A stretch of DNA of 64,000 nucleotides from an uncultured delta proteobacterium. Lineage in GTDB: Bacteria > Desulfobacterota > Binatia > DP-6. The position numbers and the translations under genes were made by a program. Positions 25,628 through 54,229 of the stretch are shown in pieces. Position 1 is the stretch's first letter, and each line of letters begins with the position of its first letter. Under the pieces are notes generated by a model. That model saw nothing but the letters and a program-made list of their open reading frames with translations, searched no databases and was not told the origin of the DNA. The stretch spans positions 352,001-416,000 of the forward strand of contig CAWFFN010000005.1 of assembly GCA_963815115.1 (NCBI GenBank), in the 5' to 3' direction.

Positions 25628-27181
25628 TCAGGTCGCGAGTGCGGGGTCCAGGGCGTGCCGGCCCGCCGCCCACGGGCTCTCGGCCGCGCCGAGCTCTGGA
25701 TCCCACATGTCGAGCTTCTGCATGACGGACACGATGTGCTTGTACGTCACCAGGGCGGAGAACACGGCGTTCAGTCCCGACGGCTTTTCCTTCCACCGGC
25801 GCAGGACCCGGAGCGGGATGCGTCGGAACTCCGGTCCCATCGACCCGAACGCCCGCAGCAGGTGCGTGTAGAACTCGGCGCCGTCGTCCTCGCCGAGCCC
25901 GTACACGACCCGACCGGAGTCGGGCCACACCTCGCAGAGCCCCAGCACACGCTGGCCGAAATGGGCCGGGTGGTACAGGCGATTGAGCAGCCAGCGCGTG
26001 CCGTGGCGTAGCTGGTCGGCGGTCATCAGCTTGGGCACGATGTTGGTCCCGGAATAGTGGTCGAAGTCGGGACGATCGACGAGCCGACCGTCCGCCCGGA
26101 GGCGCGCCTCGAGCGGAGTCCCCGCGGGCGCGTTCAGCATCCCGGTGCTGCAGATCGGCACGTTGGCGGCCTGCAGGAACTCGAACTGCTCGCGAAACGC
26201 GTCGGTGGTGTCGTGGTCGAAGCCGACGATCATCCCCGCCTGGACGCAGACGCCCCGGGCCTGCAGCTCGTGGATGCTCTCGAGCAGGTCGCGGGCGAGG
26301 TTCTGCCGCTTCTTGGCCTCCGCGAGCGCCGCCTTGTTGGGCGACTCGATGCCGACGAACGCCACGTTCAGGCCCGCCGCGGCGCACAGGTCCACGACCT
26401 CGGGATCGCGCACGATGTCGATCGAGAGCTGGGTCGAGAAGATCACCGGCTCCGCGCGGTCCCCGTTCCAGTCGCGGAGCGCGGTGAGGATCTCCGTCGC
26501 CTTCTTGCGGTTGACGGTGAAGTTGTCGTCCGAGAGGAAGATGGAGCGATACCCGTAGCCGTACAGCGTGTCCGCCTCGGCGAGGATCTGCTCGACCGCC
26601 TTGTGGCGGATGCGGCGGCCGAGATACACGATGACGTCGCAGAACTCGCACTCGAACGGGCATCCGCGGCTCGTCTGGATGACGCCGATCGTGTAGCGGT
26701 CGTTGCGCAGGAGATCCATGCGCGGCGGGGGCGAGAGGGCGAAGTCGATCTTCTCGGGCTGGGCGTAGTGGTCGCGGTGCCGCCCGGCCCGGAAGTCGTC
26801 GAGGAACGCCGGCCAGGTGAGCTCGGCCTCGCCGGTGAAGAGGATGTCGCAGTAGGGGCGGCAGCGCTCCGGGCTCAGCGAGGCGAACGGACCGCCGATC
26901 GCGACCAGCCGCCCGCGCTCGCGGAACATCCGCGCGAGCTCGACCATGCGCCGGCTCTGGCTGACGTAGCCGGTGATCCCGACCAGGTCGCACGGCAAGT
27001 CCAGGTCCACGGCCTCGACCGTCTCGTCACAGATCACCACCTCGACGTCCTTCGGCGTCAGCGCCGCCAGCGTCGGCGGCGCGAGGTTCGGGATGTATCC
27101 CGGCTTGCCGGTGATGTCGGCCGCTTCCGAGAGGCTCCAGAAGCTCGCCTGCAGCCCGGGATTCACGAGGTAGACGCGCAC
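25628..27181 (-). CDS. Cobalamin-dependent radical SAM enzyme (HpnP/DUF4070-like; RS4)
   Basis: N-terminal B12-binding-like domain (SFWS..PNLAPPTLAALTP, VAIGGPFAS), SRGCPFECEFC, DDNF, GIES, MIVGFDHD; GTG start with GGAGG. Confidence 0.9.
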   Translation of the reverse strand: MRVYLVNPGLQASFWSLSEAADITGKPGYIPNLAPPTLAALTPKDVEVVICDETVEAVDLDLPCDLVGITGYVSQSRRMVELARMFRERGRLVAIGGPFASLSPERCRPYCDILFTGEAELTWPAFLDDFRAGRHRDHYAQPEKIDFALSPPPRMDLLRNDRYTIGVIQTSRGCPFECEFCDVIVYLGRRIRHKAVEQILAEADTLYGYGYRSIFLSDDNFTVNRKKATEILTALRDWNGDRAEPVIFSTQLSIDIVRDPEVVDLCAAAGLNVAFVGIESPNKAALAEAKKRQNLARDLLESIHELQARGVCVQAGMIVGFDHDTTDAFREQFEFLQAANVPICSTGMLNAPAGTPLEARLRADGRLVDRPDFDHYSGTNIVPKLMTADQLRHGTRWLLNRLYHPAHFGQRVLGLCEVWPDSGRVVYGLGEDDGAEFYTHLLRAFGSMGPEFRRIPLRVLRRWKEKPSGLNAVFSALVTYKHIVSVMQKLDMWDPELGAAESPWAAGRHALDPALAT

Positions 27182-27193
27182 GGTGCACCTCCG

Positions 27194-27940
27194 TTACATC
27201 GCGAGTCCGCCGTCGACGTGCACGACCGCACCCGTCACGTAGCGGGCGGCGGGGGAGAGCAGAAACGCCGCCACCGGCGCGACGTCCTCGGGCTCGCCGA
27301 AGCGCCGCATGGGAATCAGCTCGGTCGCCTGGCGCTCGTACTCCGGCTTCAGTCCGGCCGTCATGTCCGTCCGGATGAACCCGAGGGCCAGGGCGTTGAC
27401 GGTGATGTCGAGCCGCCCGACCTCCTTCGCCAGCGCCTTGGTGAAGCCGATGACGCCCGCCTTCGACGCCGAGTAGTTCGCCTGACCGGGCATGCCGACG
27501 ATGCCACTCACCGAGGTCACGTTGAGGATGCGGCCGCTCTTGGCCTTCATCATGGGCGTGATCACGGCGCGACAGAAGTTGAACACCCCGGTCAGGTTGG
27601 TGTCGAGCACGTCCTTCCAGTCGTCGGCCTTCATCATCATGAGGAGCTTGTCCTTCGTGATGCCCGCGTTGTTCACGAGGGCGTGGATCTCCCCCAGCTC
27701 GCTGCGGGCGCGCGCGATCATCTCCCGGACGCGCTCGAGATCGGCCGAATCCACCTGGGCCGCGAGCGATCGGACGCCCAGGGCGTCGAGTTCGCTCGTC
27801 AGCGTCTCGGCGAGGTCGGCGCGGCTGCGATAGGAGAACGCCACGCTGCACCCTTGCCGGGCGAGCTCCAGGGCGATGGCGCGCCCGATGCCCCGCGTCG
27901 CTCCCGTCACGACGGCGACTCTGCCCTCGAACGTGCTCAC
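27194..27940 (-). CDS. fabG: 3-oxoacyl-ACP reductase
   Basis: TGATRGIG, LVNNAGITKD, NYSASKAG, GFIRTDMT; GTG start overlaps the upstream stop. Confidence 0.92.
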   Translation of the reverse strand: MSTFEGRVAVVTGATRGIGRAIALELARQGCSVAFSYRSRADLAETLTSELDALGVRSLAAQVDSADLERVREMIARARSELGEIHALVNNAGITKDKLLMMMKADDWKDVLDTNLTGVFNFCRAVITPMMKAKSGRILNVTSVSGIVGMPGQANYSASKAGVIGFTKALAKEVGRLDITVNALALGFIRTDMTAGLKPEYERQATELIPMRRFGEPEDVAPVAAFLLSPAARYVTGAVVHVDGGLAM

Positions 27941-28692
27941 GAGCTGCCATTCCCCGAGCGCTCCGCGATCTGCTCGCCGACGAGCGCCGCGAAGGCTTCC
28001 GTCTCGCGGCGGAGGCCGTCGGCGCCGCCATCGGTCAGGAAGCATTCCTTGAGCGCTCTCACCGCCGCCGCGGGCTTCGCGGAGAGGTCGCGGGCCATCT
28101 CCCCGGCGGTCGCCAGCACGCGGTCTCGCGGCACGAGCCGGTCGACGAGCCCCCAGGCCAGCGCCGTCTCGGCCCGGATCATCCGTCCGAGGTACAGCAT
28201 CTCCTTGGCCCGTCCGACGCCGATGAAGCGGGCGAGGCGCTGGGTCGCCCCGAGGCCCGGAATGATGCCGTGCTTCAGCTCGGGCATGCTGAAGTACGCC
28301 ACCTCCGAGGCGACCCGGAGGTCGCACACCAGCGCGAGCTCGAGGCCCCCGCCGATGGCGACGCCGTTGATGGCGGCGATCAGCGGCTTCGGATAGGCCT
28401 CGATGCGCGAGTAGATGCGCTGGAACCTTTCGAACAGCGTCATGCGCTCCTCGTGTCCGAGGCCCGCCATCTCCTCGCCGAAGAGCTGCTGCAGATCGCC
28501 GCCGGTGCAGAACGCGTTGCGGATCCCGCCGGTGAGGATGACCGCAGCGACGGCAGGGTCGTCCTTCCAGGCCTCCAGCGCCGTGACGATCTCGTCCAGC
28601 ACCTGGCCGTTGATGGCATTGATCGGCGGTCGCATCAGGGTGACGGTGCCCACCCCGTCCTCGTGCGCGACCGACAGGTGATGAAATCCCAT
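27937..28692 (-). CDS. Enoyl-CoA hydratase (crotonase)
   Basis: FCTGGDL, AIGGGLE, PELKHGIIPGLGATQRL; both catalytic Glu present. Confidence 0.9.
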   Translation of the reverse strand: MGFHHLSVAHEDGVGTVTLMRPPINAINGQVLDEIVTALEAWKDDPAVAAVILTGGIRNAFCTGGDLQQLFGEEMAGLGHEERMTLFERFQRIYSRIEAYPKPLIAAINGVAIGGGLELALVCDLRVASEVAYFSMPELKHGIIPGLGATQRLARFIGVGRAKEMLYLGRMIRAETALAWGLVDRLVPRDRVLATAGEMARDLSAKPAAAVRALKECFLTDGGADGLRRETEAFAALVGEQIAERSGNGSS

Positions 28693-28694
28693 GC

Positions 28695-29915
28695 CTATTC
28701 GCTCCCCACGACGAGACACGCCGAGCTGGCCTGCGGATCGAGCGATGGCACCAGGACGGTGCGCACCGCCCGGGCGAGCGGGCCGGACACGAGGGCCAGC
28801 GGCCCGATCTCCGGATCGACCTCCGTCGTGTTGATCGTCGGCGGGATCGTGCCCGACTCGAGCGCGACGAGCGCGGCAGCGGTCTGCAGCGCGCCCGACG
28901 CCCCCATGCATTCGCCCAGCATCGACTTGACCGCCGTCACCGGGACATCGGGTCCGAGGAGCCGTCCGATCGCCGCCCCCTCGACGAAGTCGGCCTCGCG
29001 GCTCGAGCTGGCGGATGCGCTGACCAGGTCGACGGACCGGGGCGCAACGCCGGCACGCTCGAGCGCCAGGCTCATCACGGCTTTCACGGAGTCCGCCGCG
29101 CGCCGTCCGCCGGTGAAGAGCGACCCGTAGCCAGCCACGGTTCCCCGGATGCGCGCGCCTCGTTTGCGGGCCACGTCCCGGTTCTCGAGGACGAAGAGAT
29201 AGCAGCCCTCACCGAGGACGAACCCTCTCCGCCGCCGGTCGTAGGGCACGCTGAGCCCTGCCGCCTCGCCTCGCGCGAGCCGACCCTCGTCGGCTGCGAG
29301 CAGGAAGGCATCGAGGGAGAGCTGCTCCATGCCGCCGGCGACCACGCGGGTCGCCTGTCCCGAGCGGATCATGCCCGCCGCGGTGCCGAGCGCGTCGGCG
29401 CTGGACGCGAATCCCGAGGACACCGTGTTGATGCAGGCCTGGAGCCTGGACCGCACGGCGGCGAAGTTGGTCGCGGAATTGAGCGCCGCGTCGAACCCCT
29501 CCATGGGAAGCAGGTCGGCTGGATCATGAGTCAGTATCTTCTGCGTGTAGTCGGTGGTCTGAGGAAAGTTGCCGTGCGCGGTCCCGACGATGAGCCCGGT
29601 CTCGGCCCGCGTCTCCTCGCCGTCCTCCAGCCCGGCGTCCTGGAGCGCCTGCTGCACCGCGACGGCCAGAAGCCGCGTCCCGCGCATGACGTACTTGATG
29701 CCCTTGCCGCCCAGCCGCTCGTCCGCACGCAGGTCGCGCACCTCGGCGCCCACCCGTACCGGCGACGCCGAGAGGTCGAGCGTCGTCACGGGACCGATCG
29801 CCGAGGCGCCACGGCGAAGATTCGCCGAGAACTCCTCCCAGGCGCAACCCAGCGGCGAGACGACGCCCACGCCCGTGATGACGACGTGCAGGGATGTCCT
29901 CGCCTCGGCGCTCAT
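28695..29915 (-). CDS. Ketosynthase-like protein lacking the catalytic triad (CLF-like, KS6)
   Basis: KS fold; SSGFASS at the Cys site, SASASSS at the HGTGT site, KSMLGE at the second His. Confidence 0.85.
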   Translation of the reverse strand: MSAEARTSLHVVITGVGVVSPLGCAWEEFSANLRRGASAIGPVTTLDLSASPVRVGAEVRDLRADERLGGKGIKYVMRGTRLLAVAVQQALQDAGLEDGEETRAETGLIVGTAHGNFPQTTDYTQKILTHDPADLLPMEGFDAALNSATNFAAVRSRLQACINTVSSGFASSADALGTAAGMIRSGQATRVVAGGMEQLSLDAFLLAADEGRLARGEAAGLSVPYDRRRRGFVLGEGCYLFVLENRDVARKRGARIRGTVAGYGSLFTGGRRAADSVKAVMSLALERAGVAPRSVDLVSASASSSREADFVEGAAIGRLLGPDVPVTAVKSMLGECMGASGALQTAAALVALESGTIPPTINTTEVDPEIGPLALVSGPLARAVRTVLVPSLDPQASSACLVVGSE

Positions 29916-31090
29916 GCCTTCGTGAAGACGACGACGGCGTTGTTGCCGCCGAAGGCGAACGAGTTGTTCATCACCGCACGGAGCGCGAGCGGGCGTGCGG
30001 CGTTCGGGACGCAGTCGACGGGGCAGTCCGGGTCGGGGGTCTGGTAGTTGATGGTGGGAGGGACGACTCCGTCCCGCAGCGCCAGGCAGCACACCACGGA
30101 CTCGATGGCGCTGGCCGCTCCCATGGAATGGCCGATCATCGACTTGACCGAGCTCACCGGGAGGCGGCCGGCCCGGTCGCCGAACACGGCGCGCAGCGCC
30201 ACGGCTTCGGCCCGGTCGTTCGCCGGTGTCCCGGTGCCGTGCGCGCTCACGTAGTCGATGTCGTCGGGCGCCAGCCCGGCGGCGCGGAGCGCGGCGCGCA
30301 TCGCCCGGATGGCCCCTGCGCCCGACGGATCGGGCGACGTCACGTGGAAGCCGTCCGCGCTCAGCCCGTACCCCTTCACCTCGGCGTAGGCCGGCGCTCC
30401 CCGCTCGGCGGCGTGCTCGCGCGACTCGAGCACGAGCATCCCCGCGCCCTCGCCGATCATCAGACCGCGGCGGTTCCGGTCGAACGGCTGGCAGTGCTCG
30501 GCGGCCAGAGAACGGAGGTTGTGGAAGTACGTGAACTCCGTCTGCGCGAAGACGTCGACCCCGCCGACGACCATCGCGTCCACCTCGCCTCGCCGGATGA
30601 GATCACACCCGGAGGCGAGGGCATGATTCCCGGAGGAGCACGCGTTCACGGACAGGAGATGGGGTCCGCCGGTGCCGAGCCGGTCCGCCAGCGCGCCCAG
30701 GATGGTGGAGAGGGGATAGGTGCGGGTGACCGCCGGCGTGAAGCCGTTCGCCTTGGTTGCCGGGTCGGCGCGCAGCGCCGCCTCGAAGGTCTTCAGATCG
30801 CCCCCGAGCGTGCCGACGACCACCCCCACACGCTCCGCGCCCGTGCGGCCCACGTCGAGCCCGGCGTCCCGGACCGCCTCGCTCGCGGCCGTGCCCGCCA
30901 GCTCGTGCGGGGTGGTCTCGAGCGCGAGCTCGCGGATGACGTGGCCCCGGTGCACCTTGTAGGCCGTCGTGTCGAAGTAGGGGATCTCGCCGGCGCCTTC
31001 CCGACCGGCGAGCATCGCCTTCCACGCCGCATCGGTACCGACTCCGACGGAGGTGACGAGGCCGACGCCGGTGACGACGACTCCTGACAT
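29912..31090 (-). CDS. fabF: Beta-ketoacyl-ACP synthase II-like, active (KS5)
   Basis: NACSSG, AHGTGT, KSMIGH, NSFAFGGNN. Confidence 0.9.
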   Translation of the reverse strand: MSGVVVTGVGLVTSVGVGTDAAWKAMLAGREGAGEIPYFDTTAYKVHRGHVIRELALETTPHELAGTAASEAVRDAGLDVGRTGAERVGVVVGTLGGDLKTFEAALRADPATKANGFTPAVTRTYPLSTILGALADRLGTGGPHLLSVNACSSGNHALASGCDLIRRGEVDAMVVGGVDVFAQTEFTYFHNLRSLAAEHCQPFDRNRRGLMIGEGAGMLVLESREHAAERGAPAYAEVKGYGLSADGFHVTSPDPSGAGAIRAMRAALRAAGLAPDDIDYVSAHGTGTPANDRAEAVALRAVFGDRAGRLPVSSVKSMIGHSMGAASAIESVVCCLALRDGVVPPTINYQTPDPDCPVDCVPNAARPLALRAVMNNSFAFGGNNAVVVFTKA

Positions 31091-31335
31091 CTAGGAGACC
31101 GACCCAAGACGGCGTCTCGGGTCGGATCCGGAGGCGAGCGCAGCGCGCTCGGTAGCACGCACGACCTGCATGTCGCGGCCGGCAACGCCGGCGCGACACT
31201 CTCGGCACGCCCGTGTCCGCCTCGTTTGCCGCGCCAGCTTTGCTGGCCGCGGCATGGCGGTCGCCCATGCCACCATACGTCTCATGTCCACTTTTCCTCT
31301 CCGACCCAAGACGCAGTCCTGGGTCGGCCTTCTAG
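31091..31335. mobile_element. MITE-like element bounded by CTAG with ~20-bp imperfect terminal inverted repeats
   Basis: CTAGGAGACCGACCCAAGAC vs reverse complement of the right end CTAGAAGGCCGACCCAGGAC (17/20); twin 12-bp hairpins at 31099-31125 and 31301-31327. Confidence 0.65.
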
Positions 31336-32774
31336 GCGGTGGCGTGCTCCTGCCGGTAGCGCCACAGCGCGCGGTCGTACTCGCCGGAGTCCCGCAGGTC
31401 CTTCGCGTTCTGGATGAGGTGCCGGAAGACCAGCTGCCAGTCGAGGTTCACGCGAAACGCGAAGTACGCCGCCGCCAGGTTGCCCAGCACCTCGCGAGCG
31501 CGGGCGAACCGCCGGCGCAGGACCTCCGTGGTGTAGAGGCGCTCGTAGAGGTGCTCGAGCCCCGCGATGAAGTCGTCCAGCGGCATGCTCTTCAGCAGGT
31601 AGAGGAGGTGATGCGCGGTGCCGTACTGCCAGTCCTGCGGGAAGCGGTTGCGGAACAGCCGCCCCTCGGCCTGCAGGCGCTCGTAGAAGCGCGTTCCCGG
31701 GGCCGGGGTCTCGATCCCGCAGGTCATGATGTCGATGTCGTTGTCGAGGACGAAGTCGGCGACGCGATCGAACACCTCGGGGCTCTCCGTGTCGGTCCCG
31801 AAGATCATCGTGCCCCAGACCGCCAGGCCGTGGTGGTGGATGCGCTCGATGGCGCGTCGATAGTCGCCCCCCGTGGCCTTCAGGTTGAACTTCTTGTTGA
31901 GGAGCTGGAGGGTCGCGGCCTCGAGCGACTCGAATCCGATCAGCATCCCCACGCTGCCGGACTGCGCCATCCAGTGCAGGACCTCGTCGTCCTCGGCGAT
32001 GTGGATGGACGTGAAGCCGAACCAGTTCTGGCGGATGCCGCGTTCCGCCATCTGGCGGTACAGCGACACGGTGCGCTCGTGCGACAGCTTGCCGTGGCCG
32101 TAGAAGTTCTCGTCGCTCCAGATCATGCCACGATACTGCCCCTTGAACTCCTCGAGCTCGTCGAGCAGGTCGTCGACGGGGCGTTCGCGATATTTCCGGC
32201 CCTGGAAGAGCGGGATGAAGCAGAACTCGCAGGTGTACGGGCACCCCGCCGACGCGATCGCCGCCGTGAAACGGTAGCCGTACTTGCGCCGCAGGAACTC
32301 CCGGTCGGGTCGGATGTCCCGGAGGATGGACAGATCGTGCAGCCCGCCGTCGTAGTGCGGCTGGAGCTCCCCGCGCTCGAAGTCCCGCACCAGCCTGGGC
32401 CACGCGGTGAACGCCTCTCGCGTGCAGATCGCATCCGCGAAGGGCCGCGCCTCCTCCGGGTAGGAGGTGGCGTGCCAGCCGCCGATGGCCACCGGGATCC
32501 CCTGCGCCCGGCACGCCGTGGCGATCTGGTAGGCGCGCGGCGCCTGGTGGCTCATCGCGGTGATCCCCACCAGATCCGCGCCGTCGAACGTGATGCCGGT
32601 CCCGTCCGCGGCGAGGGCCTGCTCCTTCATCTCGTCGATGATGTCGACCTCCCAGCCCGCGGGCGTGAGCGCCTTCAGGTAGGCGAGGCCGAGCGGCATC
32701 TGCGTCAGGACCGAGACGTTCTCCTCGCCGACGTTGCCCGGCGGATGCGGGCTGATGAGCACCAGGCGCTTCAT
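31332..32774 (-). CDS. Cobalamin-dependent radical SAM enzyme (RS3)
   Basis: QMPLGLAYLKALTP, VAIGGWHAT, GCPYTCEFC, DENFYG, IGFES; TGATG coupling to RS2. Confidence 0.9.
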   Translation of the reverse strand: MKRLVLISPHPPGNVGEENVSVLTQMPLGLAYLKALTPAGWEVDIIDEMKEQALAADGTGITFDGADLVGITAMSHQAPRAYQIATACRAQGIPVAIGGWHATSYPEEARPFADAICTREAFTAWPRLVRDFERGELQPHYDGGLHDLSILRDIRPDREFLRRKYGYRFTAAIASAGCPYTCEFCFIPLFQGRKYRERPVDDLLDELEEFKGQYRGMIWSDENFYGHGKLSHERTVSLYRQMAERGIRQNWFGFTSIHIAEDDEVLHWMAQSGSVGMLIGFESLEAATLQLLNKKFNLKATGGDYRRAIERIHHHGLAVWGTMIFGTDTESPEVFDRVADFVLDNDIDIMTCGIETPAPGTRFYERLQAEGRLFRNRFPQDWQYGTAHHLLYLLKSMPLDDFIAGLEHLYERLYTTEVLRRRFARAREVLGNLAAAYFAFRVNLDWQLVFRHLIQNAKDLRDSGEYDRALWRYRQEHATA

Positions 32775-34315
32775 CAGGCTTGCCCCACCGGCTGCTTGGC
32801 ATGCACGTTCTTGTAGATCGACATGAGCTTGGCCCGCTGCGGATGGTTGAAGTCCTCGAAGGCGAGCGGCACCGCGACCTGCGCCGGATTGGCCTCGTGG
32901 GGGTACGCACCCGAGTCGTAGAGCTTGTGTAGCTCCATCAGGTTGGCCTCGAAGACGACCTTCCAGTCGAGGTTGATGCGGTAGGCGAACATCGAGTTCA
33001 CGAGGTTGCCGGTGGCGGCGTAGGTCTGCTTGAAGCGCTCGCGCAGCTTCTCCTTGCCGTAGATGTTGTCGTACACGTAGGTGAGCCCCTCGATGAAGCG
33101 CTCGAGCGACATGTTCTTCAGCCGATGCACGAGGTGACCGGAGTTGTAGTAGTACCAGTCGTACGGGAAGTTGGTGCGGAAGATGCGCTGCTCGCTGCTC
33201 AGGCGGTCGAAGAGCTCGGTGCGCACCATGGGCGTGTAGATGCCGAAGGTGCAGACGTCCATTCCGGTCTCCCAGACGGCGTCGACGACCTGCTTGAAGG
33301 TGTCTTCCTTGTCGAAGTCGGTTCCGAAGATCACCGAGCTCCACACGATCAGCCCGTGCCGGTGGAGGTTGCCGAAGCAGTGCCGGTAGCTGTCGAGGAA
33401 CGAGGTCGAAGCCTTCTTGGCGATGCCGATGTTGACCGACTTGTGCATCTTCTTGAGCGTGTCGTAGTCGAGTGACTCGATGCCCATCAGGATGCCGAGG
33501 CAGCCGCTCTTCGCCATGTAGTCGAGCACGACGTCGTCCTGGGTGACGTTGAGCGACGTGAAGCCGAACCAGTTCTTCTTGAGATCGCGCTCCGCCCACC
33601 CCTTGAAGAGCTTGCGGCAGCGTTCCTGCGAGTCGGGCGTGTAGCCGTAGAAGTTGTCCTCCGCGAGCATGAGCCCGCGGTAGTCGGTGTGGGCGAGCTC
33701 GTTCCAGACGTCCTCCGGCGGGCGCTGGCGGTACTTGCGGCCCTGGATGAAGGGGACACAGCAGAAGTCGCACTTGAACGGGCAGCCGCGGGTCGTGATG
33801 ATCGACGAGTACTTGTAGCGGTACTTGTCGCGCAGCCACTCCCGGTCGGGGTGGATGTCCCTGAGCTCCTCGAGCGGCGTCGGGCCGCCGTGGTAGGTGG
33901 GCTGGAGACGCCCGCCATCGAAGTCGGCGAGCACCTGCGGCCACACCCGCTCGGCCTCGCCGATGACCACGCTGTTCACGTGGGCGCTCGCCTCCTCCGG
34001 GAGAATGGTCGCGTGGGCGCCGCCGGCGACCGTCGGCACGCCCGCCTTGCGACACGCCTCGGCGATCTCGTAGAGCCGCGGCACCTGGTAGGTCACGGCC
34101 GTGATCCCGACGAGGTCGGCATGGCCGAAGGTCAGGTTGCCCTGCGCGTCGACGGCCCGCTCGAGGGTCTCGTCGATGACGTCGACCTCCCATTCGTCGC
34201 GCGGCGTCAGCGCGGCGATGTAGGCGAGGTTGAGCGGCATCTGCACGATGACCGAGATGTTCTCCTCGCCGAAGTGCTTCTCGGGATAGGCGTTGATCAG
34301 AACGAGTCGCTTCAT
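32774..34315 (-). CDS. Cobalamin-dependent radical SAM enzyme (RS2)
   Basis: QMPLNLAYIAALTP, GGAHAT, GEAE, RGCPFKCDFC, EDNFYG, MGIES. Confidence 0.9.
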   Translation of the reverse strand: MKRLVLINAYPEKHFGEENISVIVQMPLNLAYIAALTPRDEWEVDVIDETLERAVDAQGNLTFGHADLVGITAVTYQVPRLYEIAEACRKAGVPTVAGGAHATILPEEASAHVNSVVIGEAERVWPQVLADFDGGRLQPTYHGGPTPLEELRDIHPDREWLRDKYRYKYSSIITTRGCPFKCDFCCVPFIQGRKYRQRPPEDVWNELAHTDYRGLMLAEDNFYGYTPDSQERCRKLFKGWAERDLKKNWFGFTSLNVTQDDVVLDYMAKSGCLGILMGIESLDYDTLKKMHKSVNIGIAKKASTSFLDSYRHCFGNLHRHGLIVWSSVIFGTDFDKEDTFKQVVDAVWETGMDVCTFGIYTPMVRTELFDRLSSEQRIFRTNFPYDWYYYNSGHLVHRLKNMSLERFIEGLTYVYDNIYGKEKLRERFKQTYAATGNLVNSMFAYRINLDWKVVFEANLMELHKLYDSGAYPHEANPAQVAVPLAFEDFNHPQRAKLMSIYKNVHAKQPVGQA

Positions 34316-40604: not shown

Positions 40605-40680
40605 CCGTTAACCCGCGATCCACGCATGGTCAAGCAGTTCTCGATTTTCTGGAACGACCCCAAACTTGGAGTGTCTCTAA
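40605..40680 (-). promoter_or_regulatory. Putative internal promoter (TTGACC-N17-TAACGG) with upstream imperfect palindromes
   Basis: TTGGAG-TGT-CTCTAA (40666-40680) and a weaker copy (40649-40663) lie just upstream of the -35-like box, ahead of ACP1. Confidence 0.35.
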
Positions 40681-44841: not shown

Positions 44842-46065
44842 CTACTGGAGCGACTCGCTCCTCCTGACGACGAGGCTCGCGGCGCGGTCGCAGTCGAAGC
44901 TGTTGACGACCGCGGTCCGGACCGCATGGGGCACGCTGCGACCGCGCACGTGCGCCGGCACGATGCAGTCCGGGTCCTCGTCCTCGCAGTTCACGGTCGG
45001 CGGAACGCGGTCGTGCTGGGCGGCGAGCAGACAGGCGACGACCTGGAGCATGCCGGAGGCGGCGCCGGCATCGCCGAGCATCGACTTGATGGCGCTGGTG
45101 CGAAGTCGGCGCGGCTCGGCGGCGAACAGCCGCCGGAGCGCCATGGCTTCACCGCGATCGCCGGACGGGGACGAGCCGGCGCCGGCCGCGACCCAGTCGA
45201 CCTCGTCGGCACCGGTGCCGGCCGCCGCCAGAGCCCGCTGCATTGCCTCGGCGATGGCCTCTGCCGTCGCGAGGACCTCCTCGCCCGTCTCGACGGGCAC
45301 GCTGCCGTACCCCGCGACCTCGCCGTACACCCGGGCACCGCGGCCCCGCGCGGCCTCGGCGCTCTCGAGGACGAGGACTCCGCAGCCCTCGGCGAGGATG
45401 AGCCCGCGCCGCCGCCGGTCGAACGGACGCGGCGCCATGGTGTCTCCGAGCACGCCCGTGCGCCAGAACCCCTCGACGAGGGGCGGAGACAGCACCTCGA
45501 GGCCGCCGACCAGGAGGGCGCGGGCGCGCCCGCAGCGCAGCGCGGTGAGTCCGTGCTGGAGCGCGTCCAGCGACGAGGTGGCGCCGTTGGTCACGGTCGT
45601 GTTGAGACCCCGGATGCCGAAGCGAATCGCCAGATTGCCGCCGGCGATGTTGATGAACAGGTTGGGAAAGCGCAGCGCATTCGTGCGCTCGCCCGGCGAG
45701 AGCAGGCTCTCGTAGAAGCCGACGCAGTCCCCGACGTTGCTGAAGCTCGATGCGACCACCACCCCGATGTCCTCGGCCGCGTCGGGAGAGATCTCCAGGC
45801 GTGCGTCCCGCCGCGCGAGCTCGGCCGTGCACAGGAGGAGCCGGGTCGCGTCGTTCAGGTACTTGAGCCCTTTCGACCCGATGATGTCCTCGGGCCGGAA
45901 CTCGCCGAGCTGCCCCGCGTAGCGATAGGCCTCGGGCAGCGCCTCGAGCCCTGCGATCGGCCTCACGGCGAGCCGACCTTCGGCCAGACCGTCCCAGAAG
46001 GCGTCGCGACCGACGCCGAGCGGACTGATCACTCCGATGCCCGAGATCACGACGCGGTCACCCAT
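44842..46065 (-). CDS. Ketosynthase-like protein lacking the catalytic triad (CLF-like, KS2)
   Basis: TNGATSS at the Cys site, AAGAGSS at the HGTGT site, KSMLGD at the second His. Confidence 0.85.
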   Translation of the reverse strand: MGDRVVISGIGVISPLGVGRDAFWDGLAEGRLAVRPIAGLEALPEAYRYAGQLGEFRPEDIIGSKGLKYLNDATRLLLCTAELARRDARLEISPDAAEDIGVVVASSFSNVGDCVGFYESLLSPGERTNALRFPNLFINIAGGNLAIRFGIRGLNTTVTNGATSSLDALQHGLTALRCGRARALLVGGLEVLSPPLVEGFWRTGVLGDTMAPRPFDRRRRGLILAEGCGVLVLESAEAARGRGARVYGEVAGYGSVPVETGEEVLATAEAIAEAMQRALAAAGTGADEVDWVAAGAGSSPSGDRGEAMALRRLFAAEPRRLRTSAIKSMLGDAGAASGMLQVVACLLAAQHDRVPPTVNCEDEDPDCIVPAHVRGRSVPHAVRTAVVNSFDCDRAASLVVRRSESLQ

Positions 46066-49170: not shown

Positions 49171-50113
49171 ATGGGCGAGTCGGCGGGGGTGGATCTCCAC
49201 GGGCTCGCGCGCTCCTTCGGTGAGGTCGAGGCGGTGCGCGGCGTGTCGCTGCACATCGACGAAGGAGAGACCGTGGGGCTGCTGGGTCCCAACGGCGCGG
49301 GCAAGACCACCACGCTCTCGATGCTGGCCGCCCTGCTTCCGCCGTCGTCGGGTGACGCGGAGATCTTCGGAGCCAGCCTGCGCCGCGAGGCGTGGACGGT
49401 GCGCCGCCTGGTCGGCCTCGCACCCCAGGACGTCAGTCTCTATCCCGAGCTGACGGCGGACGAGAACCTGCGCTTCTTCGGCCGGCTCTACGGCCTCGGC
49501 GGAGCGCGGCTGCGGGAGCGCGCGGACGAGCTGCTCGACCTCGTCGGCCTCCTGCCGCGCCGCCACGACCGGGTCGCGACGTACTCGGGAGGCATGAAGC
49601 GCCGGCTCAACCTCGCCTGTAGCCTGCTGCATGCGCCCCGGCTGCTGCTGCTGGACGAGCCCACGGTGGGCGTGGATCCCCAGTCGCGGGACAGGATCTT
49701 CGACGCCATCCGGGAGCTGGCACGACGTGGACGGACCATCCTCTACTCGACCCACTACATGGAGGAGGCCGAGCGCCTGTGCGACCGCATCACCATCATG
49801 GACGAGGGACGCCTCGTCGCCGCCGGGACGCTCGGCGAGCTCCTCCAGATCCCTCGGCATGGGAGAGATCATCGACCTGATCGGCCTCGGCGAGGAGCTC
49901 GGCGACGGCCAGCTGGCGTCGATCCCCGGCGTCACCAAGATCGAGCGGAATGAGCGCTCGACCCGCATCTTCGTCGAGAGCGCCGCGCGCGCGCTCCCGG
50001 CGATCGCGGCCGTCGTGGCCCGGGGCGGCGAGAGACTCCGGGGCGTGCAGATCTATCCCGTGGACCTCGAGCGCGTCTTCTTGCACCTCACCGGGAAGCA
50101 CCTGCGGGACTGA
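49171..50113 (+). CDS. ABC-2 type ATP-binding protein; apparent +1 frameshift at ~49851
   Basis: GPNGAGKT, YSGGMKRR, LLDEPTVG, STHYMEE; the C-terminal DLERVFLHLTGKHLRD lies in another frame after ATCCCTC. Confidence 0.85.
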
Positions 50114-50121
50114 CGACGTCG

Positions 50122-50724
50122 ATGCGCGCGATCGGCCGCACCACCGCCCTGGCGGTCCTGCTCGCCTGCGCGGCGTACGGCGACGTCGCGCCGCCGGGCG
50201 GCGCCGTGGACGCGGTCCGTGACACGCTCGCGAAGGCGCGCACCGTCGTGCTGACGTCCGACTCTCACGAGCAGAAGCTCGAGGCCCTGCACGACCTGGC
50301 GCGCCATCTGATGGACACCCGCGCCATGGGACGCCGGGCGATCGGCCCGCGGCTCGCGGAGCAGTCCGAGGCGCAGCAAGAGGAGTTCCTGAAGCTCTTC
50401 GACGAGCTGATCGTGCGGTCCTATCTGCAGAAGCTGCTCTTCTTCCGCCAGCCGCGCTTCGCCTTCGGCAAGGAAGAGACCGGGCAGGACACGGTGATCG
50501 TGCACACCCGCATCGTCACCGACAAGGACGAGTTCTTCGTCGACTACGAGATGCACCAGCGCGACGGCGCGTGGGTCGCCTCGGACATCGTCGTCGAGAA
50601 CATCAGCCTGGCGCAGAACTATGCGCAGCAGTTTCAGGAGCTGCTGCGAACGCGTTCCTTCGACGCGCTGCTCGAGCTGATGCGTGGCAAGGTGGCGGGG
50701 CTCCGCGCCAAGAGCGACTCGTGA
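50122..50724 (+). CDS. MlaC/Ttg2D family periplasmic lipid-binding protein
   Basis: Signal peptide; MGRRAIG, VDYEM, W...DIVVENISL.QNY..QF. Confidence 0.85.
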   Translation: MRAIGRTTALAVLLACAAYGDVAPPGGAVDAVRDTLAKARTVVLTSDSHEQKLEALHDLARHLMDTRAMGRRAIGPRLAEQSEAQQEEFLKLFDELIVRSYLQKLLFFRQPRFAFGKEETGQDTVIVHTRIVTDKDEFFVDYEMHQRDGAWVASDIVVENISLAQNYAQQFQELLRTRSFDALLELMRGKVAGLRAKSDS

Positions 50725-51812
50725 GCCTGCTCGCCATCGCGCTGAAGGACCTCAGGCTCATCGCCCGGGACCGCGTCGCGCTCCTCTTCACGGTCCTCGT
50801 GCCCATCGTCGTGATCACCATCGTGGCCGAGACCCTCGGCGGACACGCCGGCGGGTCGATCGTCCTGCCGGTCGTGAACGACGACGGCGGCCCGGTCGCG
50901 GAGGTGCTGACCGAGACACTCCGCAAGCACGTCGAGGTGATGGAGGTCGACCGCGCCCGGGCCGAGGCGCTGGTCGGGAGCGAGAAGCGCGCCGCGGCGG
51001 CCCTCGTGCTGCCCGAGCGTCTCAGCAAGCGCTATCTGGGCGGGCAGCCGTCGACCCTCACGCTCCTCACCGATCCGGCGAAAGGGGCCGAGGTCAACAC
51101 CCTGAAAGCCTACCTCATGCTCGCCGACAGCGAGGCAGCGGCACTGGCGGACCCGCTCTCGGAAAAGCTCCTGGTACTGGACGAGCACAACCTCACCGGC
51201 ACGCGCCTCACGACGTCCTCCTTCGAGCAGAACGTCCCCGGGTTCAGCGTGATGTTCGTGCTGATGAGCATGCTCTTCGGGGTCGCCTTCGGCCTGCGCG
51301 ACGAGCTCGACTGGGGTACGGTCACGCGGCTGCGGATGGCGCCGATCGGGCGCGGCACGCTGCTCGGCGGCAAGCTGCTGGCGCGCTACGCCGTCGGTGT
51401 GGTGCAGATGCTCCTCCTCTTCGTGTTCGGCCACTACGCGTTCGGCGTCTCGCTCGGTCCGTCGATCCTCGGCTTTCTGGCGCTGACGCTCGTGGTCGTC
51501 TTCTGCATGACCTCGTTCAGTCTTCTCGTGGCGACGTTCGCCCGCACGCGGGAGCAGATCATTCCGATCGGTCTCACGGTCGTCATGCTGGTGTGCGCCA
51601 TCGGAGGGTGCTGGTGGCCGCTGTTCATGGAGCCCCGGTGGCTGCAGCAGGTTGCCCATGCCACGCCGACGGCGTGGGCGATGGACGGCCTCAGCGACCT
51701 CATTCTGCGGGATCGGACGCTGCTGGGGATCGCCCCCACCCTGGCCGCGCTGCTCGCCTATGGTCTCGTGTGCCTCGGCCTGGGAGCCCGGCTCTATCGG
51801 CTCGGGGACTGA
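50721..51812 (+). CDS. ABC-2 type permease
   Basis: IALKDLRLIARDR, VPGFSVMF, RLRMAP, GGCWWP, TPTAWAMDG. Confidence 0.88.
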   Translation: MSLLAIALKDLRLIARDRVALLFTVLVPIVVITIVAETLGGHAGGSIVLPVVNDDGGPVAEVLTETLRKHVEVMEVDRARAEALVGSEKRAAAALVLPERLSKRYLGGQPSTLTLLTDPAKGAEVNTLKAYLMLADSEAAALADPLSEKLLVLDEHNLTGTRLTTSSFEQNVPGFSVMFVLMSMLFGVAFGLRDELDWGTVTRLRMAPIGRGTLLGGKLLARYAVGVVQMLLLFVFGHYAFGVSLGPSILGFLALTLVVVFCMTSFSLLVATFARTREQIIPIGLTVVMLVCAIGGCWWPLFMEPRWLQQVAHATPTAWAMDGLSDLILRDRTLLGIAPTLAALLAYGLVCLGLGARLYRLGD

Positions 51813-51832: not shown

Positions 51833-52939
51833 TCAGTGGGACGCCCGGCGCCGGAGCACTCTCTCGACCGCGGGCGCGAGCGCGGCCGCCACGCGGCGGC
51901 TTCCCTCCGCGGTGGGATGGAGTGAATCGAGGAACTCGTCCGGGCCGAGGAGGTCGTGCAGGTCGACGTACTCGAACCCGCGCGCCGCGCTCTCGGCGCG
52001 CAGCCACTCCAGGAACTCGGTCAGCCTCGCCGTGGAGGTCCGGAGGTTGTAGCAGGCGCCGCTCGGCTCGTGATTCACGGGCCAGTGCGCCACGACCACG
52101 TCGATGCCGCGCGTCCGCCGCAGCTCCTCCAGGTAGGCGAGGACGTTCCAGCTCGCCCACGCCTTGTCGCGTTCCTCGTTGGCCAGCGTCGTCGCGCAGT
52201 CGTACGTCGCGGGTTTCCGAGGCGGCGGCTGTGCCGGCTCGTCGAACCGTCCGGTCAGGAGACGGATGCCGTCCTCTCCGCCCGCACGCACGATCGCCCG
52301 GGAGAGCGCCCCGAGCTGGCGCAGATGACCGGTCGCGAGCGATGTCCCGGGGATCCCGGAGAGCCAGAGATTGTAGCGCCAGATCGGCTCCTCCAACCCG
52401 GGCAGCGGGTCGTTCACGAGCGCCTCGACCGCCCCGGAGTTGTCCAGGAAGAAGTCGATCAAGCCAGGATACACGGCGGGCGCGACGTGGACGAACTCCG
52501 TGATGGTGAGCGGATAGACGATGACCGCGGGATCGTAGGGCAGGGCCGCGCGCACGATCAGGGCGTCTTGCAGCTGGTAGGTATTGACGAAGCCGAGGTT
52601 GAAGGCGCGCGCCGGGAGGCCATGCGCGACCAGCAGGCGGTCGAGCTCGGCGGGCACTGCTTGGTTCGCCGGGAGCGGGAACCCGAACGACACGCTGCTC
52701 CCGACGACCACGACGCGCTGCTCCTGCGGGCGATCGCGCGCGTGGCGGCAGAGCGTGTGCTGGCGCAGCAGGGGCGGGAGCCAGAAGACCTCGGGTGAGG
52801 GCAGCGGTTGCAGCCGCGCGCCGCCCTCGAACAGACCGGGCAGACACCAGCGCGGCGTCGCGGCCGCCGGTGACGACAGGAGACACGCCAGCGTGGCGAT
52901 CGCGACGAGCCCTGAGCGCGGGCGCTCAGAACGCGACAT
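51833..52939 (-). CDS. SGNH-hydrolase-like (DltD/AlgJ-type) membrane-anchored acyltransferase
   Basis: N-terminal TM/signal; VVGSSV (block I Ser) and FLDSLHP (DxxH). Confidence 0.75.
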   Translation of the reverse strand: MSRSERPRSGLVAIATLACLLSSPAAATPRWCLPGLFEGGARLQPLPSPEVFWLPPLLRQHTLCRHARDRPQEQRVVVVGSSVSFGFPLPANQAVPAELDRLLVAHGLPARAFNLGFVNTYQLQDALIVRAALPYDPAVIVYPLTITEFVHVAPAVYPGLIDFFLDNSGAVEALVNDPLPGLEEPIWRYNLWLSGIPGTSLATGHLRQLGALSRAIVRAGGEDGIRLLTGRFDEPAQPPPRKPATYDCATTLANEERDKAWASWNVLAYLEELRRTRGIDVVVAHWPVNHEPSGACYNLRTSTARLTEFLEWLRAESAARGFEYVDLHDLLGPDEFLDSLHPTAEGSRRVAAALAPAVERVLRRRASH

Positions 52940-53051
52940 AGATGAAGGGAGGCGCATTCGGCTTCCAGAGCGCGAGCACCGCCAGCAGCATGAGGCCGTA
53001 GAGGACGACGCGGCCGGCGGCGCGGAGGAGACGGGTGCGGGACGGGTTCAT
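52926..53051 (-). CDS. DltX-like small membrane peptide (41 aa)
   Basis: MNPSRTRLLRAAGRVVLYGLMLLAVLALWKPNAPPFIYVAF*: one TM helix, C-terminal FIYxxF; overlaps both neighbours. Confidence 0.75.
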   Translation of the reverse strand: MNPSRTRLLRAAGRVVLYGLMLLAVLALWKPNAPPFIYVAF

Positions 53052-54229
53052 CCGAGCGTGAGGAGCGTGGCGGTCTGGTGAAGAACGACCCGCGGCGGGT
53101 AGAAGAAGATGAGCCAGCCGTAGCTGACGAACCCGAAGCAGACGGCCTGGCGTAGGCGGTTGCGCACCGGACCGTCGGCGAACAGCCCGGGGCGGGTTCG
53201 CCGGAGCGCCGCTTCCCCCGCGAGCCCGGCCCCGTGGTACACGCCCCAGACGGCGAAGTGCCACGCGGCCCCGTGCCAGAGCCCGCACACCGCCATGGCG
53301 GTCAGCAGGTTGAAAGCGCGGTGCCGGCGGTTGCCGCCCAGCGGGACGTACACGTAGTCACGGATCCACGAGCTGAGGCTCATGTGCCAGCGACGCCAGA
53401 AGTCGCGCAGGCTGGTTGCGCCGTACGGCCGGTCGAAGTTCTCCGGGACGCGCAGCCCGAGGGTGCCGGCGAGCCCGATCGCCATGTCGCTGTAGCCGTC
53501 GAAGTCGTAGTAGATGCGGAGACCTTGCAGCACCGCCAGCATGGCGACCAGCCCCGACGTAGGGCTGGTCTGCTGCTCGATCAGCTTCACCCATTCGACG
53601 ATCAGGTCGGCGACGCAGACCTTCTTGAAGAGCCCGAGGACCACGCGGCGCACGCCCGACCAGAAGACGTCCGGACTGGGTCGGGCCAGCGTCGCGAGCT
53701 GGGGAACGAAATCCGGGAAGCGCTTGATCGGGCCGGCCGCCAGGGTGGGGAAGAAGAAGGCGAACACGGCGAAATGGAGCGGATTGCGCACCGGCTGCCG
53801 TCCCGTGACGCGGACCTCGTACAGGTAGTGGACGAACTCGAAGGTGAAGAACGAGATGCCGAGCGGAGCGGCCGGGCCCATCCAGCCGAGCAGGGGACGG
53901 GGAGGGTCGGTTCCGGTCCAGACCGCGAGATGGATAAAGGTGTCGCGGACCAGGTTCGAGTACTTGTAGGTCACGAGCGTTGCGACACAGAGGCAGATCG
54001 CGAACGCAGGGAGCGACCACCGGCCGACCCGCGTCGACGTGAGCGCCGCCGCCCAGGAGAGCGTCGCCAGGGTGGTGACGACCAGCACGCCGCCCACCCC
54101 GCCGAAGTGGAAGTAGAAGGTGAGGCTCGTCGCGAGCAGCCACCAGACCCGGAGCGCCTGCGGCAGGAGCAGGAAGCCGGTGACGGCGACGGCGGCGAAG
54201 GTCCAGAACCAGGGCTCGAGAAAGAGCAT
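53048..54229 (-). CDS. MBOAT family O-acyltransferase (DltB/AlgI-like)
   Basis: PLGISFFTF, AGPI.R, DFDGYSDMAIG, ENFDRPY, DFWRRWHMSLS, GLWHGA. Confidence 0.92.
   Translation of the reverse strand: MLFLEPWFWTFAAVAVTGFLLLPQALRVWWLLATSLTFYFHFGGVGGVLVVTTLATLSWAAALTSTRVGRWSLPAFAICLCVATLVTYKYSNLVRDTFIHLAVWTGTDPPRPLLGWMGPAAPLGISFFTFEFVHYLYEVRVTGRQPVRNPLHFAVFAFFFPTLAAGPIKRFPDFVPQLATLARPSPDVFWSGVRRVVLGLFKKVCVADLIVEWVKLIEQQTSPTSGLVAMLAVLQGLRIYYDFDGYSDMAIGLAGTLGLRVPENFDRPYGATSLRDFWRRWHMSLSSWIRDYVYVPLGGNRRHRAFNLLTAMAVCGLWHGAAWHFAVWGVYHGAGLAGEAALRRTRPGLFADGPVRNRLRQAVCFGFVSYGWLIFFYPPRVVLHQTATLLTLG

Follow-up and report, generated by a model that had tools for sequence, protein, structure and literature searches.

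The window analyzed here, a 64,000-nt stretch of DNA from an uncultured delta proteobacterium (assembly GCA_963815115.1, contig CAWFFN010000005.1, positions 352,001 to 416,000), carries a 22-gene cluster of lipid biosynthetic appearance. Part of the cluster corresponds to Cluster I of the anaerobic ammonium-oxidizing (anammox) bacteria and part to a second anammox locus of the Kuste2803-2805 type. The window is ~70% GC throughout, so raw lists of open reading frames (ORFs) are noisy. Genes were called by third-position GC (GC3) frame analysis combined with start-codon choice and a Pfam scan, and the start codons are our own choices. The 22 genes are co-oriented on the minus strand and tightly packed from 48958 down to 25628 (Table 1). 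Their 21 junctions comprise 8 overlaps of 1-8 nt, 11 gaps of 2-42 nt and two gaps above 200 nt, which measure 209 nt (40468-40676, before ACP2) and 241 nt (31091-31331, before KSa3). A preliminary description of this DNA, made from the sequence alone, had the gene order exactly right and described the genes as co-oriented and mostly overlapping. Orientation and tight packing are confirmed, with overlaps at 8/21 junctions; the count is 22 rather than about 21.

No intrinsic-terminator-like site was detected on the minus strand in 30900-49400. A sigma-70 promoter scan of the same interval returned no sites, and such a scan is uninformative at 70% GC. The Rfam scan of the whole window gave no family at threshold, hence no cobalamin riboswitch, and neither long gap matched a family. 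The 209-nt gap follows the internal TetR gene and precedes ACP2; because of this position, the Cluster I-like block may own a TetR-controlled promoter. In a single soil metatranscriptome library, contigs ~93% identical to the window cover parts of rSAM3, rSAM2, rSAM1, KS1, KSb1 and the ligase gene. None of them spans two operon genes; they come from relatives, DNA carry-over is possible, and they are not counted as expression.

The cluster encodes three ketosynthases (KS1, KSa2 and KSa3) that retain Cys-His-His and the gate Phe motif, and three KS-like proteins (KSb1, KSb2 and KSb3) with other residues at the catalytic-triad positions (Table 1). Three active and three triad-less proteins therefore form three pairs of the KS/chain-length-factor (CLF) type. 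The four radical S-adenosylmethionine (SAM) proteins, rSAM1 to rSAM4, share an invariant CxxxCxxC motif (C179/C183/C186). Pfam B12-binding scores are 42-49 bits for rSAM1-3 (cut-off 32.1) and 31.5 bits for rSAM4, and Radical_SAM scores are 50-67 bits. All four thus show the cobalamin-dependent radical SAM domain architecture, and cofactor binding is predicted. Enoyl reductase, FabD, FabH and thioesterase families, reported as absent in the preliminary description, were also not found among the 22 operon proteins by Pfam and NCBIfam scans.

Table 1. Genes of the cluster in transcription order, followed by its neighbors
Gene product	Coordinates	Strand	Basis or remark
MIPS, myo-inositol-1-phosphate synthase homologue, 389 aa	47789..48958	-	Pfam NAD_binding_5 123 bits, Inos-1-P_synth 99.9 bits; first operon gene
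Hypothetical protein, 116 aa	47433..47783	-	no Pfam/NCBIfam match
PaaK-like adenylate-forming ligase, 455 aa	46069..47436	-	Pfam AMP-binding, AMP-binding_C_2
KSb1, CLF-like KS without triad (Ala/Gly/Asp)	44842..46065	-	Pfam, alignment
ACP1, generic acyl carrier protein (ACP)	44499..44825	-	PP-binding domain; best PDB match only 30 bits
3-hydroxyacyl-CoA dehydrogenase-type reductase	43337..44491	-	Pfam 3HCDH_N, 3HCDH
ECH1, crotonase-fold hydratase/dehydratase	42610..43344	-	Pfam ECH_1 160.8 bits
KS1, KS with Cys-His-His	41355..42599	-	Pfam, alignment
TetR-family regulator	40677..41312	-	Pfam TetR_N; 75% identity in L001
ACP2, amxACP counterpart (KustE3603 type), DSL serine motif	40192..40467	-	PDB matches
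FabZ, amxFabZ counterpart (KustE3604 type)	39728..40195	-	PDB matches
KSa2, amxFabF2 counterpart (KustE3605 type), Cys-His-His intact	38493..39731	-	PDB match, KS tree
KSb2, amxFabFmut counterpart (KustE3606 type), Glu/Gly/Glu	37270..38496	-	PDB match, KS tree
CrtI/phytoene-dehydrogenase-like flavoenzyme (KustE3607 type)	35790..37265	-	Pfam Amino_oxidase
rSAM1, B12-binding radical SAM protein (KustE3608 type)	34327..35775	-	Pfam B12-binding, Radical_SAM
rSAM2, rSAM1 paralogue	32774..34315	-	54% identity to rSAM1
rSAM3, counterpart of second-anammox-locus B12-binding radical SAM protein (Kuste2803 type)	31332..32774	-	identity, collinearity, tree
KSa3, KS with Cys-His-His, second-anammox-locus counterpart	29912..31090	-	51-53% identity
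KSb3, CLF-like KS, Phe/Ser/Glu (Kuste2805 type)	28695..29915	-	39-43% identity
ECH2, crotonase-fold enzyme	27937..28692	-	Pfam ECH_1 200.8 bits
FabG, 3-oxoacyl-ACP reductase	27194..27940	-	NCBIfam TIGR01830 312 bits > cut-off 297.75
rSAM4, divergent B12-binding radical SAM protein with DUF4070	25628..27181	-	Pfam Radical_SAM, DUF4070; B12-binding 31.5 bits vs cut-off 32.1; last operon gene
ABC ATPase, MlaC-like lipid-binding protein, ABC-2 permease	49171..51812	+	Pfam; divergent from operon
GDSL/SGNH-like gene and MBOAT gene	51833..54229		two genes
Amidohydrolase	54291..55502		after MBOAT region

Counterparts of two anammox loci

Cluster I of Kuenenia (KustE3603-3608) encodes amxACP, amxFabZ, amxFabF2, amxFabFmut, a phytoene-dehydrogenase homologue and a cobalamin-dependent radical SAM protein, according to a 2026 preprint (Granatino) and Dietl 2023 (PMC10139942). 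The genes ACP2-FabZ-KSa2-KSb2-CrtI-rSAM1 (40467-34327) are identical to this set in content and order, adjacent, and on one strand. ACP2 matches PDB entries 7auf (94 bits), 9s5i_E (82.5 bits) and 7qv0_D (79 bits), and the next ACP scores 32.7 bits. The top five PDB matches of FabZ are the five amxFabZ entries (155-165 bits), as identified from the data-availability statement of PMC10139942, followed by the next-best FabZ, 6n3p, with 118 bits. The best match of KSa2 is 9s5h_B (544 bits versus 348 for the runner-up) and that of KSb2 is 9s5h_C (359 versus 216 bits). The PDB titles do not say what 9s5h and 9s5i are; their chain pattern, read together with the preprint, leads us to infer that they represent the amxFabF heterodimer. 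rSAM1 is 62% identical to the Kuenenia stuttgartiensis and Brocadia proteins, which exceeds its identity to its own paralogues in the window (54, 46 and 32% for rSAM2, rSAM3 and rSAM4, respectively). By PDB scores and trees, ACP2, FabZ, KSa2, KSb2 and rSAM1 are each nearer to the amx counterpart than to canonical fatty acid synthase (FAS) paralogues.

Compared with canonical FabZ, amxFabZ carries Ile69 in place of Gly, which narrows the tunnel, Val/Ile115 in place of Arg/Lys, and Ser/Thr96 in place of Lys/Arg, as described in Dietl 2023 (PMC10139942). The window FabZ has Leu at position 69 (bulky, not Gly), Ile at 115 (an amx match) and Leu at 96 (non-basic, not Ser/Thr). The agreement is partial: position 115 matches in identity, and in kind the two proteins have in common a bulky residue in the tunnel and the loss of basic residues at two ACP-contact positions. 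In the 2026 preprint, mutagenesis identifies Phe135 and Val139 of amxFabFmut as residues that set chain-length preference, with C6-C8 favored in the heterodimer. KSb2, which lacks Cys-His-His, has the motif NPM(D/E)FPNTVLNAP in common with 9s5h_C; this motif holds Phe135 and Val139 if an offset of +1 between chain index and paper numbering is assumed. The signatures of FabZ and KSb2 point to short chains as the substrates of the core, in line with reports on the anammox proteins.

The second correspondence involves rSAM3. Five Brocadiales genomes, which include Brocadia pituitae, a Kuenenia metagenome-assembled genome (MAG) and Scalindua sediminis, were searched with rSAM3, and each has a gene 55-59% identical to it that is distinct from the radical SAM gene of Cluster I (42-49%). 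Its neighborhood is collinear with window 32774-27194 in the order rSAM3-KSa3-KSb3-ECH2-FabG. The identities are 51-53% for KSa3, 39-43% for KSb3, 42-44% for ECH2 and 57% for FabG (Scalindua and genome G409); ECH2 and FabG were not both seen at every locus. Rattray 2009 (PMC2649909) lists Phe163/Asn298/Glu333 for Kuste2805 and Val163/Asn298/Glu333 for Kuste3606 in its Table 2, and singled out Kuste2803, a B12-binding radical SAM protein, for its very limited identity to genes of other organisms. The anammox sequences that we fetched reproduce both residue patterns exactly, and KSb3 has Phe at the Cys position, as do Kuste2805 and loci L089-L091. The second locus was equated with the Kuste tags through its gene order and the Table 2 signature rather than through accession numbers.

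The distance between Cluster I and the second locus is 218 kb in Brocadia and 21 kb in Scalindua; the window has the two contiguous. In a small Brocadiales MAG (G409 contig 91, locus L091) the two loci are adjacent and convergent, with rSAM3-KSa3-KSb3-..-FabG facing rSAM1-CrtI. The adjacency in this MAG and the short distance in Scalindua fit a shared task of the two anammox loci. The resemblance to anammox ladderane loci noted in the preliminary description therefore extends to gene-for-gene homology in the same order, and it involves two anammox loci instead of one.

Host, distribution and lineage-specific genes

The host genome (G000) is 6.9 Mb in 12 contigs, 100% complete and ~70% GC. A search for the alpha domain of hydrazine synthase (HZS_alpha) gave two matches in the positive control Brocadia pituitae and none in the host, which has five COX1 matches (haem-copper oxidases). 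The gene content thus identifies the host as an oxidase-bearing, non-anammox bacterium, and the earlier statement that the window lacks anammox markers now extends to HZS_alpha in the whole genome. In a set of 15 genomes, HZS_alpha is full-length in six (G405, G408, G412, G413, G414 and G415), gives weak partial matches of 34-35 bits in two (G403 and G411), and has no match in seven (G000, G365, G401, G402, G404, G409 and the remaining G410), of which G409 is only 1.9 Mb and clearly incomplete. The weak matches mean little, because the domain also matches in the control Bacteroides thetaiotaomicron. The core occurs in genomes without an HZS_alpha match, so the view that Cluster I is present only in ladderane-producing (anammox) organisms is not upheld.

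To define the distribution of the cluster, one genome per species was scanned with an rSAM alignment, and the 79 loci obtained were compared with the window proteins by tblastn. All six core genes are present, in order and on one strand, in 55/79 loci. Another 11/79 have a partial core, mostly cut by contig ends, and 13/79 have the radical SAM gene alone or another arrangement. In the 54 full-core loci other than L001, identity to the window is 42-53% for ACP, 41-56% for FabZ, 48-60% for KSa2, 32-51% for KSb2, 39-53% for the CrtI-like protein in the same slot, and 55-64% for rSAM1. KSb2 falls to 32% in divergent non-anammox loci, and the other core proteins stay higher. Collinearity with 55/79 loci at 32-64% protein identity excludes a chance resemblance. 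The CrtI-like protein scores below the cut-off with the NCBIfam models carot_isom (174 bits) and crtI_fam (170 bits), and its orthology is judged from identity and gene position only.

The phylogenies of the KS and radical SAM proteins, proposed as a check in the preliminary description, place several of the window sequences with or beside anammox sequences. In the maximum likelihood tree of 49 radical SAM proteins (careful search), rSAM1 groups with L001, L004, L003 and L022. The sister group of these five rows is a Brocadiales clade of 15 rows that holds the anammox sequences (100/100). The joint clade has a support of 98/97, and the non-anammox-labelled L066, L074, L054, L068 and L073 branch just outside it. 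The rSAM3 clade is supported at 100/99. In the KS tree, which was obtained by a quick search, four orthogroups each contain window and anammox sequences: KSa2, KSb2 (99), KSa3 (100) and KSb3 (98). In both trees, the window and anammox sequences form sister clades and are not nested.

Enlarged clusters similar to that of the window occur in a few other non-anammox MAGs. L001, labelled as an uncultured delta proteobacterium, has the whole cluster, and L002, with the same label, has a part that is cut by the contig end (72-96% identity). G365 (locus L004), labelled as a Myxococcales bacterium and belonging to the class of the host, has ACP2-FabZ-KSa2, a shortened KSb2, no CrtI-like gene, rSAM1-3 and KSa3-KSb3-ECH2-FabG, followed by ACP1, a FabH-like KS (KS III), KS1 and a short gene of KS-like type. 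Its ACP2 has an acyl-CoA dehydrogenase gene immediately upstream, and a MacB/FtsX permease lies downstream of the cluster (L086 16026-17261; L087 11804-12895 and 15519-18215). L066, labelled Spirochaetales (genome G402), has the core, a second rSAM1-like gene and KSa3-KSb3-FabG, followed by MIPS and the PaaK-like ligase; it also has two rSAM4 copies. A 59.8-kb Blastocatellia contig carries both the full core of L022 and the block of L003 (KSa3-KSb3-rSAM3-rSAM1-like), ~18 kb apart. In a sample of 401 genomes from the host phylum, 11 have an rSAM1 match at E<=1e-80, and only G000 and G365 exceed 40% identity; in a sample of 401 genomes from the phylum of G404, only G404 matches at E<=1e-120. Judged from these samples, the cluster is rare and patchy outside the Brocadiales.

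The lineage-specific additions to the two anammox-type blocks begin with a third KS/CLF pair, which comes with a separate ACP, a 3-hydroxyacyl dehydrogenase and a crotonase; they further comprise two extra B12-binding radical SAM proteins, MIPS and the PaaK-like ligase. The KS1 clade contains only L001 and G365 besides the window, and KSb1 has no anammox partner in the KS tree. rSAM2 likewise forms a clade with L001 and G365; by identity, its nearest outsiders are stand-alone genes in some Brocadiales (56-58%). Several Brocadiales genomes (loci L069, L071, L072 and L075-L079) carry such a third, stand-alone B12-binding radical SAM gene closest to rSAM2, and at least four of them have hydrazine synthase (G408, G412, G413 and G415). 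The search of the Brocadia pituitae genome with rSAM3 revealed no third stand-alone copy. Relatives of rSAM4, which has a very long branch in the tree, are found only in L001 and L066 (two copies, 62-64%).

MIPS aligns over its full length with 7nwr_B (211 bits, residues 6-379) and 1u1i (154 bits, residues 9-362). It has no NCBIfam match, and from Pfam and these alignments it looks like a genuine enzyme of the family. Its homologues inside the cluster are 81% (G401) and 64-65% (G402/L066) identical, and none is found in Brocadia pituitae at E<=1e-10. The PaaK-like ligase has in-cluster homologues of 88% (G401) and 66% (G402/L066) identity. Its best NCBIfam model is the DVU_1553 family (198 bits, cut-off 300), and its scores with the FlxY and PaaK models likewise stay under the cut-offs. 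No homologue of the ligase was found in the Brocadia, Kuenenia and Scalindua genomes at E<=1e-10, and on this ground an equation with the 'phenylacetyl-CoA ligase' that Rattray described in Kuenenia clusters was rejected. L066 again has MIPS, the ligase and rSAM4 in company, with identities of 62-66%; by gene content these three are an accessory set tied to the cluster in two distant lineages. This recurrence inside the cluster of an independent lineage supports a functional link of MIPS and the ligase to the pathway; it does not reveal the nature of the link. The 116-aa hypothetical protein is 65% identical in G401 and absent between MIPS and PaaK in L066. An Atlas look-up of this protein gave only weak leads (score 0.78).

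Beyond MIPS, the ABC ATPase, MlaC-like and ABC-2 genes form a candidate export or trafficking unit, which is possible from the encoded domains. The same unit lies beside MIPS in G401 (80-87% identity), where its conservation counts for little because G401 is close kin. VacJ-like lipoproteins and MlaC both belong to the Mla lipid-trafficking system. A VacJ-like lipoprotein is encoded in another Kuenenia lipid cluster (Rattray 2009, PMC2649909), which offers a loose parallel to the window. The preliminary description had placed this unit and an MBOAT trio alongside the cluster and had counted MBOAT acyl transfer as part of the system. The ABC/MlaC unit is there, the MBOAT region has two genes, not three, and neither MBOAT nor GDSL is conserved beside the cluster in G401, the closest relative. 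The GDSL, MBOAT and amidohydrolase genes, together with an alpha/beta hydrolase gene downstream of rSAM4, were rejected as cluster members for the same lack of conservation.

Other genes of the window lie further away. A region ~15 kb off (5702-10699) has further lipid-related genes, whose products are a FAS1-type double-hotdog dehydratase-like protein, a DUF1329/LolA-like one and a membrane protein of the lysyl-PG-synthase type. In G401, too, the gene for this membrane protein is conserved, ~13 kb from the cluster. A 614-aa ORF at 57121-58965 matches DUF5996 over residues 315-609 only, and has either a start further in or an extra N-terminal half.

Proposed product and competing explanations

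Ladderane biosynthesis is a long-standing open problem. The 2026 preprint reports that no in vitro ladderane synthesis was detected and that no genetically accessible ladderane producer exists. Cluster I and the Kuste2803-2805 locus are known and uncharacterized. Similar clusters in some Deltaproteobacteria were noted by Rattray 2009 (PMC2649909), and antiSMASH 'ladderane' calls in other phyla have been listed, without analysis (PMC9902471). In the limited collection of literature searched, we found no publication describing the anammox/non-anammox orthology of both loci. What is new here, as judged by homology, is the fusion and enlargement, in a non-anammox genome, of close orthologues of two loci that were both supposed to be specific to anammox bacteria.

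We favor the view that the cluster makes an unsaturated acyl lipid that is remodelled by the radical SAM enzymes, with ring closure, and that belongs to the same class as the anammox product; we give this a probability of about one half. In this model, the three KS/CLF heterodimers would use malonyl units to extend a short-to-medium acyl chain held by ACP1 and ACP2. Decarboxylation of malonyl-amxACP is reported for the anammox heterodimer. FabG or the 3-hydroxyacyl dehydrogenase would reduce the beta-keto group, and FabZ or a crotonase would dehydrate the product. With no dedicated enoyl reductase, double bonds would be retained, and the CrtI-like flavoenzyme could shift, add or remove them. 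Next, while the unsaturated chain is still bound to its carrier, the B12-binding radical SAM enzymes would introduce C-C bonds into it, by ring closure and possibly by methyl addition. The outcome would be a specialized acyl chain for membrane lipids that belongs to one chemical class with the product of the anammox loci. MIPS, the ligase and rSAM4 would most likely supply or attach an inositol-derived head or ester group, and the MlaC/ABC unit may move the lipid. A radical-cyclized or methylated lipid is plausible, and so is an inositol-linked one; the term 'polyene-derived' is inferred because the cluster has no enoyl reductase.

Several points weigh against this model. A housekeeping enoyl reductase (FabI) could saturate the chain. 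None of these genes has a known product, including those of anammox bacteria, and according to the 2026 preprint and PMC10139942 no direct evidence ties Cluster I to ladderanes even there. The case for Cluster I rests largely on its 'exclusive' presence in ladderane producers, according to Dietl 2023 (PMC10139942), and this argument is weakened because the cluster occurs in non-anammox bacteria. Ring closure is a guess, since most characterized B12-dependent radical SAM enzymes are methylases. The gene set is flexible, as G365 from the same class has a shortened KSb2 and no CrtI-like gene. By layout the 22 genes form one operon-like unit, and the soil RNA contigs lend no support to co-transcription.

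The strongest competitor, tentative in our judgement and less probable than the ring-forming model, retains the architecture and assigns C-methylation to the radical SAM enzymes. This would yield a fatty acid that is methyl-branched and/or unsaturated and has no rings, and the anammox loci would likewise make branched lipids instead of ladderanes. A review describes most cobalamin-dependent radical SAM enzymes as methylases, HpnP and HpnR being the known cases that act on lipids; cyclizing, non-methylating members such as GrsA/B and BchE are also known. HpnR and PhpK-type methylases are among the best sub-threshold NCBIfam matches, but the methylase models score only 50-76 bits against cut-offs of 500-650. 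Tandem paralogues could methylate different positions, and at least seven genomes without a hydrazine synthase match remove the argument of exclusivity to ladderane producers. Methylation alone, however, does not account for ACPs reserved to the pathway, for a FabZ of the short-chain kind or for as many as three KS/CLF pairs.

A second alternative, which we consider improbable, is a secondary metabolite rather than a bulk membrane lipid: a highly reducing type II polyketide synthase (PKS) would make a diffusible or outer-membrane polyene pigment of the aryl polyene, flexirubin or ishigamide kind, with the radical SAM enzymes as tailoring enzymes. KS/CLF together with a ketoreductase and a dehydratase and without an enoyl reductase is the hallmark of polyene-type type II PKS, according to the 2026 preprint. 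FabG and the ligase give sub-threshold matches to the flexirubin models FlxB and FlxY, a TetR regulator lies within the operon and an exporter alongside, and the rare, patchy occurrence (2/401 and 1/401 in the two phylum samples) resembles that of accessory metabolites. In contrast, 11 genes are nearest to anammox loci that the preprint and PMC10139942 call highly expressed and lipid-associated, and the 22 genes include no aryl-starter genes, thioesterase, or glycosyl/acyl transferases of the aryl-polyene type. A catabolic operon related to beta-oxidation, biosynthetic in appearance only, is disfavored and very improbable: two crotonases, a 3-hydroxyacyl-CoA dehydrogenase and flanks with a CoA-transferase, another crotonase and acyl-CoA ligases would suit it, but six FabF-type KS or KS-like proteins, two ACPs, FabZ and FabG are biosynthetic, and the operon has no thiolase or acyl-CoA dehydrogenase.

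The favored model of a radical-SAM-remodelled acyl lipid leaves room for a bolder claim, namely that soil bacteria which are aerobic and not anammox organisms produce lipids of the ladderane type (fused cyclobutane), or near relatives of these with strained polycyclic structures, perhaps tied to inositol. We regard this as doubtful. If it holds, ladderanes would no longer be an exclusive anammox biomarker, their biosynthesis would become approachable through one operon of a high-GC aerobe, and that operon would show the full set (Cluster I, the Kuste2803-2805 block and the extra radical SAM genes) that is scattered in anammox genomes. Whatever the product, both anammox gene sets have close collinear counterparts that are physically joined in a non-anammox host, and counterparts occur in a handful of other phyla. 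Their union in one operon therefore argues that the two anammox loci are linked functionally. The comparison across genomes yields a candidate minimal gene set, and with the cluster, genes from an aerobe become available for expression. Either ladderane-like lipids range more widely, which bears on their use as biomarkers of anammox, or the function ascribed to Cluster I has to be reconsidered.

Comparison with known systems

The cispentacin type II PKS-like system (AmcB, AmcE, AmcF/G) builds a small carbocycle with a KS/CLF-like pair, a FabZ-like protein and an ACP, which parallels the genes of the window. Window proteins match AmcF, AmcE and AmcB in NCBIfam below threshold. With scores under the cut-offs and no AmcH-type loading or aminotransferase logic in the window, the likeness is an analogy only.

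Highly reducing type II polyene PKS systems (ishigamide Iga10-16, aryl polyene and flexirubin) share with the window the KS/CLF logic, discrete ACP, ketoreductase and dehydratase, the absence of an enoyl reductase, and a PaaK/FlxY-like ligase. KSa2 scores 326 bits with 6kxd, which we take to be the Iga entry, and 544 bits with 9s5h_B; the comparison with Iga consists of these PDB scores alone. The window differs from the polyene systems in that it has no aryl starter or thioesterase genes, has four B12-binding radical SAM proteins and a CrtI-like enzyme, and has KS proteins that fall in amx clades.

GrsA/GrsB (ring synthases), HpnP/HpnR (methylases), HpnJ and the TIGR04072 family have the same B12-binding and radical SAM architecture, in a lipid context, as the radical SAM proteins of the window. 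With NCBIfam TIGR04072 ('rSAM_ladder_B12', cut-off 360), rSAM1, rSAM2, rSAM3 and rSAM4 score 63.6, 72.7, 51.5 and 57.1 bits, respectively. Every model is far below its cut-off, which places the four proteins outside these named families. A fifth B12-binding radical SAM gene of the host (G000 contig 8, 155090-156442; L096 15088-16509) scores 342 bits with TIGR04072 against the cut-off of 360. It adjoins an FAD-dependent halogenase-like oxidoreductase gene and lies opposite a lipid A-type acyltransferase gene. Brocadia and Kuenenia also have near-cut-off TIGR04072 genes (324-330 bits), and the Brocadia copy lies beside a type III PKS.

The closest known systems are the two anammox loci. Cluster I of Kuenenia, Brocadia, Scalindua and Jettenia (PMC2649909; PMC10139942; the 2026 preprint) has the six core genes lined up on one strand as they are in the window, a dead KS partner included, and in anammox-labelled loci each of the six proteins is 41-64% identical to that of the window. 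In contrast to Cluster I, the core of the window belongs to a non-anammox host and is embedded in a 22-gene operon. KSb2 carries Glu/Gly/Glu, compared with Val/Asn/Glu in most anammox bacteria, although the anammox lineage L011 also has Glu, and position 96 of FabZ is Leu in the window and Ser/Thr in amxFabZ. The Kuste2803-2805 locus has the same order of radical SAM, KS, dead KS, crotonase and FabG genes at 39-59% identity, with Phe in place of the catalytic Cys. In Brocadia and Scalindua this locus lies apart from Cluster I, whereas the window has both as one contiguous unit.

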